A stretch of 64,000 bases of DNA, taken from NCBI GenBank assembly GCA_963674945.2, contig CAXXWQ010000001.1:192001-256000 (forward strand), read 5' to 3'. This document shows positions 16,102 to 20,214 of the stretch, in pieces; position 1 is the first letter of the stretch; every line of letters begins with the position of its first letter. Source of the DNA: an uncultured Desulfosarcina sp. Lineage in GTDB: Bacteria > Desulfobacterota > Desulfobacteria > Desulfobacterales > Desulfosarcinaceae. The notes under the pieces were generated by a model. The model was given only the letters and a program-made list of their open reading frames with translations. It made no database searches and was not told the origin of the DNA. Made by a program: the position numbers and the translations under genes.

Positions 16102-16764
16102 ATGTTTATTACCCTGGAAGGCATCGAAGGTGCAGGCAAGACCACCCAGATCGAGAACATTGCCCGATGGCTGAAGGCCGCTGGTCACGATTTTCTGATC
16201 ACCCGGGAACCCGGTGGAACGCCCATCGGTGGGCAGATCCGTTCGATTCTCCTGCATCCGGAGAATCGGGACCTGGCACCCACGGCAGAACTGTTGCTCT
16301 ACATGGCGGACCGGGTCCAACACCTGGAAACCGTCATCCGTCCGGCACTGACCTCGGAAAAGGTGGTGGTTTGCGACCGTTATTTCGATGCAACGATGGT
16401 ATATCAGGGATACGCCAGGGGCCTGGATAAAGAGATGATCCGTCGGCTGCACCAGTTTACATGCGGCGGCTTTACGCCTTCACTCACCATTTTGTTGGAC
16501 CTGGACCCAGCGGCCGGTCTTTGCCGGGCATGGAAACGGATCGATACCGATGCCGACCATGCCAAAGAATCCCGATTCGAAGAGGAGAAAATGGCGTTCC
16601 ATCATCGTGTTCGGGACGGCTATCTGGATCTTGCCCGCCGGGAACCGGATCGTTTTGTCATCGTCGATGCCGCCGTCGATCCAGGTACCGTGCGCCGGCG
16701 AATCGAAACCGTGCTTTCTGAACGATTATCCCACAAAAAAATGAATCTTTCCCATGAGCCATAG
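16102..16764 (+). CDS. tmk: Thymidylate kinase
   Basis: MFITLEGIEGAGKTTQ, TREPGGT and CDRYFDATMVYQG; AAGGA RBS before ATG 16102. Confidence 0.95.
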   Translation: MFITLEGIEGAGKTTQIENIARWLKAAGHDFLITREPGGTPIGGQIRSILLHPENRDLAPTAELLLYMADRVQHLETVIRPALTSEKVVVCDRYFDATMVYQGYARGLDKEMIRRLHQFTCGGFTPSLTILLDLDPAAGLCRAWKRIDTDADHAKESRFEEEKMAFHHRVRDGYLDLARREPDRFVIVDAAVDPGTVRRRIETVLSERLSHKKMNLSHEP

Positions 16765-19036
16765 CATTTTAGATCACATCGGCAATACCCCGTTGGTGGA
16801 GATTCGGCGGCTGAATCCCAATCCCAATGTTCGGGTGCTCGCAAAACTCGAGTATCTCAATCCCGGTGGCTCCATCAAGGACCGGCCGGCCCTTTCCATG
16901 ATCGAGGCCGGCGAGCGGTCCGGGGAACTTACGGCGGGAAAGACGGTGATCGAGGCCACCAGTGGAAACACGGGCATCGGTCTGGCCATGGTATGTTCCG
17001 TCAAGGGATACCGACTGCTTCTCGCCATGAGTGAGGCGGTCAGTGTGGAGCGGCAGAAGATCCTTCGGGCACGGGGCGCCGAGATTTTGCTGACGCCGGG
17101 TCATCTGGGGACCGACGGCGCCATCGAGGAGGTGTATCGGCTGGCCCGGGAAAATCCCGAGATCTATTTCATGACCGACCAGTACAACAATCCCGCCAAC
17201 TGGCAGGCCCATTACAACGGCACGGCAACGGAGCTGTGGAAACAGACGGACGGGGCAATGACCCACATGGTGGCGACCATGGGCACATCGGGGACCTTGA
17301 TGGGACTGTCCCGGAGACTGCACGAGTTCAATCCCGACATCCGGATCATCGGCGTGGAGCCCTATCTGGGCCACCGTCTCCAGGGACTGAAGAACATGCG
17401 GGAGGCCTACCAGCCGGAAATCTTCGAAAAACAGCTTCTCGACGAAAAGATCAACATCGAGGATGAGCCCGCATTCGAGATGACCCGTCGTCTGGCCAGA
17501 GAGGAGGGCCTCATGGTGGGCATGAGCAGCGGGGCCGCCATGGTCGTGGCCGCCCGACTGGCCGGGACCCTGGACAGCGGAACCGTGGTGGTGGTTTTCC
17601 CCGACGGGGGAGAACGCTATCTTTCCACATCGTTATTTTCCGTTCAGGAGAAGATCGATCTTTCCATCTTCAATACGATGACTCGAAAAAAGGAGCATTT
17701 CGAACCGATCACTCCCGGCAAGGTCTCCATTTACGCATGCGGTCCCACGGCCCATGCCCGGATGCACGTGGGGGAAGGGCGGCGTTTCGTTTTTGCCGAC
17801 CTTCTGGCACGGTACTTCACTTTTCGGGGCTTTGCGGTCAAGCAGGTGATGAACATCACCGACCAGGACGACAAGACCATCGAAGGTTCCCATCGAGCCG
17901 GCATGTCCCTGGAAGATTTTACTTCCATGCACATCGAGTCCTTTTACCGGGATCTTGCTACGCTGGGCATAAAGCCGGCGGATCATTATCCCAAAGCCAG
18001 CGAGCACACCGACGATATGGTGAAGCTGGCCAGCCAACTGGTTAACAAGGGATATGCCTACGAGAAGCTGCACTCCATCTATTTCGACATCTCCCGATAC
18101 AAGGAGTACGGACGATTGTCCGGGATCGATCTCGACAAGATCCGCATCGGCGCCACCGTGGATCTGGAAGAGTACGAAAAGGACAACCCCCGTGACTTTA
18201 CCCTGCTCAAACGGACCCGATTGTCGGAACTCAAACGGGGGATCTACACGAAAACCGACTGGGGCAACATGCGTCCCTCCTGGCATCTTCAATGTGCGAC
18301 CATGTCCATGCACCACCTGGGGGCGTACTACGATATTCACTGTGCCGGAAGGGAACTGGTCTTTCCCCACCATGAAAACGAAATTGCCATTGCCGGTGCG
18401 CTTACCGGAAAGACCCTGGCAAAATACTGGGTCCATTGTGACCGTGTGCTGGTGGATGGAAAGAAGGTGGATGAAGGGGAACCGCTCACCATTCAGGCGG
18501 TGTTGGACATGGGGTATTCGGGGCGCGAGATCCGGTTCTGGCTTTTATCGGTGAACTATCGAAAGCCGGTTCTCTTTTCCCGGGCACGCCTTACGCGTGT
18601 GAGAAAGACTTTGAAACGCCTGGATGCCTGTGTTCACGCCCTCAAACATGTCCGTCATGGAAATGCATGCCCGGATATCGATCAGCTGTGCTACGATATC
18701 AAAAACGGCTTTACGACCGCCATGGACGACGACCTGAACATTTCCGCGGCCATGGCCGCGATGTTCTCCGCCGTCAAACGGATCAATACGCTTATTTTAC
18801 ATGGTGACATCGACACCGACGGCGCCGGAAAAATTCTGGAGACGCTGGCCGGGATCAACCGTGTGCTCAATATCTTCGATTTCGAGGACGAAGCCGAAAA
18901 CCCCACCGTGCAGCAGTTGATCGAGCAGCGCATCCAGGCCCGAAAGGCCAAGGACTGGACATTGGCAGACCGTCTTCGGGCGCGTATCGAAGAGATGGGC
19001 GTGGTCGTGCGGGATGATAAGATCAATGATGCATGA
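16754..19036 (+). CDS. Fusion of a PLP-dependent cysteine synthase (CysK/CysM) and a cysteinyl-tRNA synthetase-like domain
   Basis: N-terminal half: IGNTPLV, NPGGSIKDR, EATSGNTG, GMSSGAA, PDGGERYLST. C-terminal half: YACGPT, NITDQDDK, DFTLLK, WHLQC, FPHHENE, MDDDLN and the anticodon-binding helix ARKAKDW..ADRLR. Confidence 0.92.
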   Translation: MSHSILDHIGNTPLVEIRRLNPNPNVRVLAKLEYLNPGGSIKDRPALSMIEAGERSGELTAGKTVIEATSGNTGIGLAMVCSVKGYRLLLAMSEAVSVERQKILRARGAEILLTPGHLGTDGAIEEVYRLARENPEIYFMTDQYNNPANWQAHYNGTATELWKQTDGAMTHMVATMGTSGTLMGLSRRLHEFNPDIRIIGVEPYLGHRLQGLKNMREAYQPEIFEKQLLDEKINIEDEPAFEMTRRLAREEGLMVGMSSGAAMVVAARLAGTLDSGTVVVVFPDGGERYLSTSLFSVQEKIDLSIFNTMTRKKEHFEPITPGKVSIYACGPTAHARMHVGEGRRFVFADLLARYFTFRGFAVKQVMNITDQDDKTIEGSHRAGMSLEDFTSMHIESFYRDLATLGIKPADHYPKASEHTDDMVKLASQLVNKGYAYEKLHSIYFDISRYKEYGRLSGIDLDKIRIGATVDLEEYEKDNPRDFTLLKRTRLSELKRGIYTKTDWGNMRPSWHLQCATMSMHHLGAYYDIHCAGRELVFPHHENEIAIAGALTGKTLAKYWVHCDRVLVDGKKVDEGEPLTIQAVLDMGYSGREIRFWLLSVNYRKPVLFSRARLTRVRKTLKRLDACVHALKHVRHGNACPDIDQLCYDIKNGFTTAMDDDLNISAAMAAMFSAVKRINTLILHGDIDTDGAGKILETLAGINRVLNIFDFEDEAENPTVQQLIEQRIQARKAKDWTLADRLRARIEEMGVVVRDDKINDA

Positions 19037-19206: not shown

Positions 19207-19227
19207 CATCCATTGGAGAGAAGTAAG

Positions 19228-20214
19228 ATGAACGTAGCCTACATGCCCTTTACCCATATATCCGAATCCATTGCCCGGCGATTGTATGCCCTCGTCGGGC
19301 CCGTGGCGGTTTACCAGCCGATAAAAAGCAGGATTCCCGAAGCCCTGCCGGCCATGGCTGACGCGGGGCTCGTAGAGATACGAACGCCTGTCCCCCATGA
19401 CGAAGAGCGGCTGACCGCCGCGTTGCGGGAGTTTTTCAACTGGGCGCAGATGAATCCGGCATCTTCATCGGCCGGAGTCGGTTATTTCGGTGCGCGGCAG
19501 GGAACGGTTCCTTTTTTTGACGAAACCGTCATCAACCGGATCCGCACCGATATCCAGCATTATGGCGAATCCGATGGCCGTTCCGACGACCCCGATGCCC
19601 TCTTTCGTGCCCGGCTGTTTTTGGCCCTCGCCCAGGATAACGACATGACCGTCCATAGCCTCCAAAGGGACCTGGGAGAGTTCAGGGCCATGGAGCAGGC
19701 GTTCATCGAAAGCCTCGAAGACACCGACGAAACATCTTTTCGTCGGGGAATGGTGAAAAGCGGCGTGTGGGAGGAGGATGCCGGCGCCAGACACACCTTG
19801 CAGCGGCTTCGCTACTGGGGCACGCTGGCCGCCGTCGATTCGCCGCACATGATGGTGACCACCAGTCCGGCGGCAGTCGATGCCCTTTTGGAGCACCTGG
19901 GCGAGACCACCGGTTTGAAAAAATGGCATCAATGCGAGATTCCACTGCCAGAAGCGGATTCTCCTCCCGCATTGATGCCATATCTAAACGATCTGGCTGC
20001 CGCAACTTCCCCGGAAACGGCCGAACCATCCGAATTGGAGAGATGCATCGATAAGACGACCTCCGGCCCGGTCGCTCCCATGACCCTCTACCTTGCAGCC
20101 AATTGTACACCCGGTCAATTTATTGGGCAAATGATCGAAATATCGCCCCGGGAAGAAGAATGCCAGGGGACGGGACCTTGGCGGCATACCCTGATTCTTT
20201 TGGTTGCCAAGTAA
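19228..20214 (+). CDS. Hypothetical protein
   Basis: 328-aa ORF with a GGAGAG RBS that fills the gap between the fusion gene and ferredoxin; no recognised motif. Confidence 0.75.
   Translation: MNVAYMPFTHISESIARRLYALVGPVAVYQPIKSRIPEALPAMADAGLVEIRTPVPHDEERLTAALREFFNWAQMNPASSSAGVGYFGARQGTVPFFDETVINRIRTDIQHYGESDGRSDDPDALFRARLFLALAQDNDMTVHSLQRDLGEFRAMEQAFIESLEDTDETSFRRGMVKSGVWEEDAGARHTLQRLRYWGTLAAVDSPHMMVTTSPAAVDALLEHLGETTGLKKWHQCEIPLPEADSPPALMPYLNDLAAATSPETAEPSELERCIDKTTSGPVAPMTLYLAANCTPGQFIGQMIEISPREEECQGTGPWRHTLILLVAK

Follow-up and report, generated by a model that had tools for sequence, protein, structure and literature searches.

A cysteine synthase fused to a cysteinyl-tRNA synthetase-like half with a decayed ATP site in Desulfosarcina and its relatives: a possible built-in regulatory subunit

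Why would an enzyme that makes cysteine carry a cysteinyl-tRNA synthetase (CysRS) whose ATP-binding signatures are degenerate? The question is raised by a window of 64,000 nucleotides (the whole stretch analyzed) from an uncultured Desulfosarcina sp. of the class Desulfobacteria, phylum Desulfobacterota (assembly GCA_963674945.2, contig CAXXWQ010000001.1, positions 192,001 to 256,000 of the forward strand). Here, one ORF (open reading frame) of 760 residues (16754..19036, + strand), free of internal stops, joins an N-terminal CysM-type cysteine synthase to a C-terminal CysRS-like half. An earlier note on this DNA had offered two answers, product channeling through an atypical synthetase and a repurposed module that binds tRNA or cysteine. 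The second fits our results; the first is unlikely for this fusion because its ATP site drifts instead of converging on a new motif. Judging from its residues, the CysRS half likely no longer charges tRNA, and by analogy with HisZ there is about an even chance that it is a regulatory subunit of the synthase, sensing cysteine and tRNA-Cys.

The architecture is that described in the note, with an intact cysteine synthase and the motifs where it had placed them (SIKDR at 16871, YACGPT at 17732, HVGE at 17765, KTIE at 17873, WHLQC at 18281, FPHHENE at 18362 and KVDEG at 18464). The pyridoxal 5'-phosphate (PLP)-dependent synthase half (residues 5-296; 16766..17641, +) matches PF00291 and has a CysM-like loop; it passes TIGR01136 with 357 bits against a cut-off of 344, and TIGR01138 (CysM) is its best subtype, yet at 354 bits it falls short of the cut-off of 394. 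The Rossmann and CP domains of the CysRS half (residues 303-616; 17660..18601, +) match PF01406 with an E-value of 5e-78 and align to the sequences of 1LI5 and 8QHP. Pfam places PALP at 5-284, tRNA-synt_1e at 316-616, DALR_2 at 653-708 and CysS_C at 717-756, and the fusion also passes TIGR00435 (cysS) with 356 bits against 340. An AlphaFold2 model of the whole protein has a predicted local distance difference test (pLDDT) value of 90.5 and a predicted TM-score (pTM) of 0.69. When this model was compared with the PDB, CysRS structures matched one half and cysteine synthase structures the other, none of the matches listed spanning both; the fold of the CysRS half is class I, with TM-scores of 0.92 to 8QHP and 0.85 to 1U0B by target length.

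The degenerate signatures reported in the note, HVGE for HIGH and KVDEG for KMSKS, align to the canonical motifs of E. coli CysRS, whose 1LI5 sequence is our reference for residue numbering. HVGE, which is followed by a family-specific G-R343-R344 (together 17765..17785, +, from motif scan and alignment), corresponds to H37-I38-G39-H40, and KVDE of the KVDEG loop (18464..18478, +) to K266-M267-S268-K269. Beyond what the note had listed, the ATP site carries a third change: GGGSD (225-229), the GGGxD ribose loop, reads CAGRE. Further differences from canonical CysRS are the replacement of Q241 by I and a shortened tail after D451. The functional roles of H234, E238, D229, D451 and the KMSKS loop are taken to be those presumed for CysRS.

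We compared 107 complete fusions (67 from the class, 40 from elsewhere) with 46 standalone CysRS, the sequences in which standalone motifs were read; three class loci out of 70 (L056-L058), which are cut or carry frameshifts, had been left out beforehand. Canonical residues occupy 322 of 856 ATP-site cells in the fusions (38%), none of which is fully intact, versus 368 of 368 (100%) in the standalone enzymes, all 46 of which have H[IVL]G[HN] and KM[SA]KS. KM[SA][KR]S is found in 0 of the 67 class-level fusions, the HIGH site comprises 40 different 4-mers, H37 is retained in only 54 of 107 fusions, and the KMSKS loop is lost or extended in several. Alignment of the orthologues, as the note had proposed, thus shows a decay common to them, next to standalone enzymes that are all intact, and hence no sequencing error; together with the selection data below, this also rules out a pseudogene. 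The same pattern recurs in 80 further loci, with no exact KMSKS and with R423, D436 and R439 in all 78 that could be scored; eight of these loci show no synthase half, being cut off at a contig start. One supposed sign of decay did not survive the comparison. The note had read KTIE as a degenerate KIIK motif, but K76 occurs in only 11 of the 46 standalone CysRS and KTI[KR] is present in intact sister enzymes, so that this motif was discarded as a signal.

In the CysRS half, the Zn/cysteine ligands and the anticodon domain that the note had described as kept are complete: the Zn ligands C28, C209, H234 and E238 are C329, C514, H539 and E543 of the fusion, three of them in the stretch WHLQC..HCAGRE..FPHHENE (18281..18382, +), and R423, R427, W432, D436, R439 and D451 are R726, R730, W735, D739, R742 and D754, located in the DALR and anticodon-binding region (18710..19021, +; Pfam and alignment). 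In CysRS, C28 and C209 are described as Zn ligands (PMC10655014), R423, R427, W432 and D436 as contacts of G34 (PMC12684709) and R439 as a target in the anticodon domain (PMC13449415). Among the 107 fusions, 637 of 642 anticodon cells (99%) and 642 of 749 Zn/Cys cells (86%) are canonical; all four Zn ligands occur in 77, H206 in 104 and H234 in 105, and R423, D436, R439 and D451 as well as R42, D48, D69 and N237 are invariant. The family has also acquired features of its own. R344 is found in 106 of 107 fusions, S or T occupying that site in 46 of 46 standalone enzymes, and an insertion in the CP domain (R487..L490..L493 K494 R G496; 18212..18241, +) is conserved to 92-100% in the fusions and missing or different in standalone CysRS. 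This insertion is a candidate docking surface for CysM.

The ratio of nonsynonymous to synonymous substitution rates (dN/dS), calculated for pairs with dS below 0.5 (8 fusion pairs and 6 standalone pairs), is 0.11 for the CysRS half versus 0.12 for standalone CysRS, so that the half is under purifying selection and no relic. Its CP domain is more constrained than that of standalone CysRS (0.06 versus 0.10), its HIGH region (0.19 versus 0.05) and KMSKS loop (0.20 versus 0.09) less so, the counts for these regions being small. A looser calculation, in which dS was allowed to reach 1.2 in 21 pairs, yielded 0.31 versus 0.19, the distant pairs being judged saturated; both runs stay below 1.

Is the fusion needed for charging tRNA-Cys at all? 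The host genome, searched for a second, canonical cysS as the note had suggested, contains one at C3:2267423 with HVGH, KIIK, GGGKD and KMSKS, located between ispF-like and uvrB-like genes (names read from their translations), and this rules out the fusion as its sole cysS. The genome also has a cysE-cysK pair, the cysE scoring below the TIGR01172 cut-off, and a tRNA-Cys(GCA). The class is represented by 151 genomes, and 140 of them carry the fusion. Of these 140, 120 have an orthologue of the host's canonical cysS and 16 another, intact HIGN/KMAKS CysRS; two of the remaining four are drafts showing no CysRS and two lay outside the check. A standalone CysRS therefore accompanies the fusion in 136 of the 138 fusion genomes examined, a count drawn from fusion genomes, the metagenomic split loci described below lying outside it. 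In 22 genomes no close orthologue of the host's cysS was seen, and the fusion might have been their only CysRS; this was dismissed, since among 20 checked, 16 of the 18 fusion-bearing ones have another CysRS type. Five relatives from the same family as the host (L105-L109, L120-L123, L135-L137 and L150-L153; host gene, L075), plus a sixth with a partial copy, have a standalone HIGN/KMAKS CysRS with an insertion, unlike that of the host; the housekeeping CysRS was therefore exchanged while the fusion stayed. Two fusion copies each were seen in G096 (L059, L060), G144 (L022, L061) and G136 (L056), and both copies of G096 have lost three Zn ligands.

The family extends to many other families of the phylum, the nearest named homologues being from Desulfosarcina. 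From a scan with two family-specific patterns, the number of stored stretches in the GTDB species collection that contain it was estimated at about 2,100. Of the 80 loci displayed, nearly all bear titles of Deltaproteobacteria or Desulfobacterota; the two exceptions lie on short contigs of metagenome-assembled genomes (MAGs).

The synthase half, for its part, keeps its catalytic residues. The lysine K42 of SIKDR, the SGNT loop, Q143, GTxGT and S258 are intact, and K42, S70-T73, Q143, G177, T178, G180, T181 and S258 are present in 107 of 107 fusions. So is K213 (17390..17392, +), which a gapless alignment equates with R210 of enterobacterial CysM, a residue linked to thiosulfate use (PMC9547175) and to the choice of O-phosphoserine (PMC3805590). 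Genome content also bears on the substrate. In 33 of the 151 genomes, the fusion is the sole cysteine synthase match, and a cysE match is absent from 25 of these. A further synthase match accompanies the fusion in 107 genomes, and here only 6, two of them with two fusions, lack cysE; in all, 31 fusion genomes gave no cysE match in the profile search. CysE is thus a companion of CysK and not of the fusion. Absence of the fusion and absence of cysE show no significant anti-correlation, cysE being missing in 1 of 11 fusion-less genomes. In the single-contig genomes G003 and G038, no CysE, MetX, JAB or SepCysS was found, and SerA and SerC score above their cut-offs; SerA and SerC are present in 5 of 5 genomes tested and SepCysS in 0 of 5, one profile search in this set having had no positive control. 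Since CysE accompanies CysK rather than the fusion, O-phosphoserine, rather than O-acetylserine, is the likely substrate of the synthase half, judging from genome content.

Trees place the fusion family in one clade, sister to intact CysRS with HIGNF-R, TGG[VI]D, KTI[KR] and KMSKS. KTI and the T at 225 are thus inherited, and the changes at H40, G226 and K269 together with R344 are the family's own. HLGN and KMSRS persist in scattered lineages of the clade, the decay having run in parallel across lineages. A profile search of cluster representatives also found unfused members, P0248 (a cluster of 58) and P0250. The P0248 group was examined at 13 metagenomic loci, and at every one of them the pseudo-cysS has a cysM directly upstream, with an overlap or a gap of at most about 10 nt; the product of this cysM is 60-65% identical to the synthase half of the fusion. 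The partnership with CysM is the only constant across the Zn-less, anticodon-less and split forms.

One relative has an intact ATP site. P0251, a CysM-CysRS fusion with the source label Nanoarchaeota archaeon, has HIGN, TGGID and KMSKS and scores 517 bits on TIGR00435, compared with 356 for the present fusion. Its CysRS half falls within the sister clade and is thus no immediate neighbor of the family, whereas in a tree with thin outgroup sampling the synthase halves of P0251 and of the family are adjacent; being a single sequence, P0251 is compatible with one origin of the CysM-CysRS fusion or with two. An atlas search with P0251 returned, as fusion clusters, only those of Thermodesulfobacteriota. 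By its sequence, P0251 is a candidate bifunctional channeling enzyme, in which an active synthetase may pass cysteine on. A different combination is P0300, a 711-residue CysE-CysRS fusion with intact motifs and both halves above NCBIfam cut-offs.

How might a synthetase that has lost its ATP site serve a cysteine synthase? HisZ, a non-adenylating paralogue of histidyl-tRNA synthetase (HisRS), is described as mediating feedback on HisG, the ATP-phosphoribosyltransferase (PMC9437257). The fusion resembles it as a synthetase paralogue, predicted not to adenylate, that is tied to an enzyme making its cognate amino acid and exists beside a normal synthetase. It differs in being of class I rather than class II and HisRS-like, in being usually fused, in acting at the last step of its pathway and in mostly keeping its anticodon domain; HisZ lacks an anticodon-binding domain. 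In GCN2, a eukaryotic kinase, a synthetase-like domain of class II senses uncharged tRNA without reading tRNAs specific for one amino acid. The regulatory subunit we propose would combine the two modes, acting like HisZ on HisG with a tRNA input as in GCN2. With its CP-domain insertion, the CysRS module would attach to the CysM dimer; it would bind tRNA-Cys by the GCA anticodon and bind cysteine, free or tRNA-borne, at the Zn pocket. Cysteine synthesis would then be started by uncharged tRNA-Cys and stopped by cysteine or Cys-tRNA. Complex prediction for a CysM dimer with the CysRS half lends weak support to docking, the score being 0.43 against 0.00 for the best control, with pLDDT of at least 83 and runs agreeing on at least 87% of contacts. 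In the calibration, 116 of 157 solved pairs and 2 of 215 mismatched ones came up to the mark; of those that did, only 18 of the 157 solved pairs, but both mismatches, scored 0.60 or less.

Several observations weigh against this proposal. The docking score is weak and no interface was obtained, the direction of regulation is drawn from analogy, and standalone CysM with the same loop type occurs without a known partner. Of the 107 fusions, 9 have lost both Zn cysteines and still have the anticodon residues. Conversely, among 11 complete split copies, 3 stop short of the anticodon domain with their Zn ligands kept; these could be decaying copies. As either sensing site is thus lost in some lineages, a purely structural role would also fit. 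A MoeB/ThiF gene behind 2 of the 13 split loci makes a sulfur-carrier donor possible in some lineages. As for the loss of charging, KMSRS is kept in 10 of 40 non-class fusions, 4 of which also have HLGN, and in 3 more such members among the 80 further loci; the dN/dS values by region are built on small counts (8 and 26 nonsynonymous substitutions); and a full standalone CysRS was not found in the two drafts mentioned above, G128 (90% complete) and G113 (410 contigs). Finally, E. coli CysRS with K266A, K269A or K266/269A is reported to be still active in cell-free protein synthesis (PMC10655014), so that loss of KMSK alone is no proof of a dead enzyme.

These mutants, the intact fold of the model, the passing TIGR00435 score, the motif-intact P0251 and the HLGN and KMSRS of basal members are what a synthetase still active with a remodeled ATP site, channeling new cysteine onto tRNA-Cys, can call upon. 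We consider it improbable: with 40 HIGH variants among 67 class fusions, H37 in half of all fusions and a KMSKS loop that several have lost or extended, there is no replacement motif, and a normal CysRS is nearly always at hand. Least probable is that the synthase half supplies a CysRS half dedicated to making cysteine persulfide. CysRS reportedly needs neither its Zn cysteines nor aminoacylation for persulfide synthesis, and the fusion studied here has the equivalents of K73 and K266; however, lysines 73, 76, 266 and 269 are all reported to matter (PMC10655014), and the positions of K76 and K269 are both E in this fusion. Across the 107 fusions, position 73 is K in 71 and R in 29, K76 is found in 6, and the K269 site is mostly E, R or D. 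The note's remark that KIIK and KMSK had been implicated in persulfide synthesis is uninformative here, as KTIE is no mark of decay.

Two other explanations leave the ATP site aside, and both seem to us unlikely, though less so than an active synthetase. One is ATP-independent chemistry on tRNA-Cys acylated with Cys, Sec, Ser or phosphoserine, which would be either deacylation, as trans-editing directed for instance against selenocysteine, or a handing over to the PLP site in a bacterial parallel to SepRS/SepCysS. The kept anticodon residues, the near-constant H206 and H234 with invariant R42, D48, D69 and N237, the likely use of O-phosphoserine and the selenocysteine machinery of the host, which has two UCA tRNAs, are in its favor. 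It is countered by the invariant carboxylate-binding SGNT loop, which, from what is known of this enzyme family, would suit a free amino acid better than a tRNA ester, by the lack of SepCysS in the five genomes (a SepRS-type partner being outside the search) and by the persistence of lineages without the anticodon domain or the Zn cysteines, both of which chemistry on Cys-tRNA should need. The other makes the CysRS half a structural or activating subunit, one that helps the CysM oligomer to assemble or makes it more stable, with binding of tRNA and cysteine secondary or serving localization to the translation machinery. Only the CysM partnership, R343/R344 and the CP insertion are constant in fused and split forms, the CP domain is the most constrained part by dN/dS, and the docking result, such as it is, would suit a scaffold too; but a scaffold would not need the surface residues R423, D436, R439 and D451, which are invariant.

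Relative to known systems, the fusion shares with canonical CysRS (TIGR00435; 1LI5/1U0B; 8QHP) the fold, the four Zn ligands and the anticodon residues, and differs from it in the decayed HIGH, GGGxD and KMSKS, the Q241 change, the CP insertion, the N-terminal synthase and the short tail. With the CysM/O-phosphoserine sulfhydrylase group (TIGR01136; TIGR01138) it has in common the PLP lysine, SGNT, a loop of CysM length and a basic residue at the R210 site, whereas the Lys in place of Arg there and the fused or coupled pseudo-CysRS set it apart. CysRS* and MshC are the CysRS paralogues named in the accessible parts of reviews of synthetase paralogues, and neither fits. Like the fusion, CysRS* of Desulfobacterales is a second CysRS-like gene beside cysS in the same order; unlike it, CysRS* is described as having no anticodon domain and as encoded behind selB* (PMC5389517), whereas the fusion keeps the domain and follows tmk. 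MshC is an ATP-dependent ligase. Set against these two, the fusion family shows the reverse, with ATP motifs lost and the anticodon domain mostly kept. SepRS/SepCysS, as the fusion would, link phosphoserine-based cysteine synthesis to tRNA-Cys but are unrelated proteins (PMC5424206, PMC8762117). In the available parts of the literature searched, including PMC7609411, PMC5424206, PMC2922099, PMC9437257, PMC5388404, PMC5389517 and PMC8762117, the fusion is undescribed; supplementary tables of synthetase surveys might list it.

Upstream, the thymidylate kinase gene tmk (16102..16764, +, start approximate; PF02223) overlaps the fusion start by 11 nt, a housekeeping context, and has a homologue upstream of the fusion in 47 class-level loci. 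Downstream lies a conserved gene for 333 residues (19213..20214, +) to which Pfam and NCBIfam scans assign no family; its homologues adjoin the fusion in 50 class-level loci and in one other, a link of position only. Conserved neighbors are confined to the class, none being kept outside it, and a scan for promoters and terminators gave results at chance level. A ligase of secondary metabolism akin to MshC was rejected, as there is no cluster and the class neighbors are only tmk and the gene without family. A partnership with selC*/selB* is unsupported, selB* being on another contig and the residues that read G34 being kept.

The genomes hold other oddities of tRNA-Cys and CysRS. In the host, at C3:570736-572793 (L072), a selC*-type tRNA with an 8-bp acceptor, A1:U72, U73 and a UCA anticodon lies directly upstream of selB*; such tRNAs have been tied to CysRS* (PMC5389517), and cysS* was not found in this genome by tblastn. 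At C4:528682-529191 (L073), a second tRNA-Cys(GCA), whose anticodon arm is unusual, lies directly behind a broken cysK-like fragment, in an island of sugar-modification and FabH-like genes. A third CysRS-like paralogue in L124 (G024), L145 (G088) and L156 (G113) has HIGN and KMSKS intact and lacks the anticodon domain; C209 is replaced (IQDAA/VQDPA), FPHHENE reads YRHHDY, and no conserved neighbors were seen. From these residues, it is possibly an amino-acid ligase for another substrate.

In databases, members of the family go by the names cysteine--tRNA ligase or cysteine synthase; these labels are thus probably wrong for a protein that is widespread in sulfur-cycling bacteria. Taken further, and tentatively, the fusion might be a synthase that uses O-phosphoserine and is gated by the charging state of tRNA-Cys, or acts on a tRNA-bound substrate, as the main cysteine route of many Desulfobacterota; it might have descended from an active cysM-cysS pair, with the motif-intact fusion labeled Nanoarchaeota and the HLGN/KMSRS members as surviving stages. 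If this is true, it would amount to tRNA-specific control, at the protein level, of an amino-acid biosynthetic enzyme by a module of class I synthetase origin. The regulatory subunit proposed here would give HisZ a class I, tRNA-reading counterpart, and the series of intact fusion, HLGN/KMSRS, fully drifted, Zn-less, anticodon-less and split forms would be natural variants of a synthetase turning regulator. It would also explain how cysteine is made and controlled in Desulfobacterota of sulfide-rich habitats that lack CysE and CysK.

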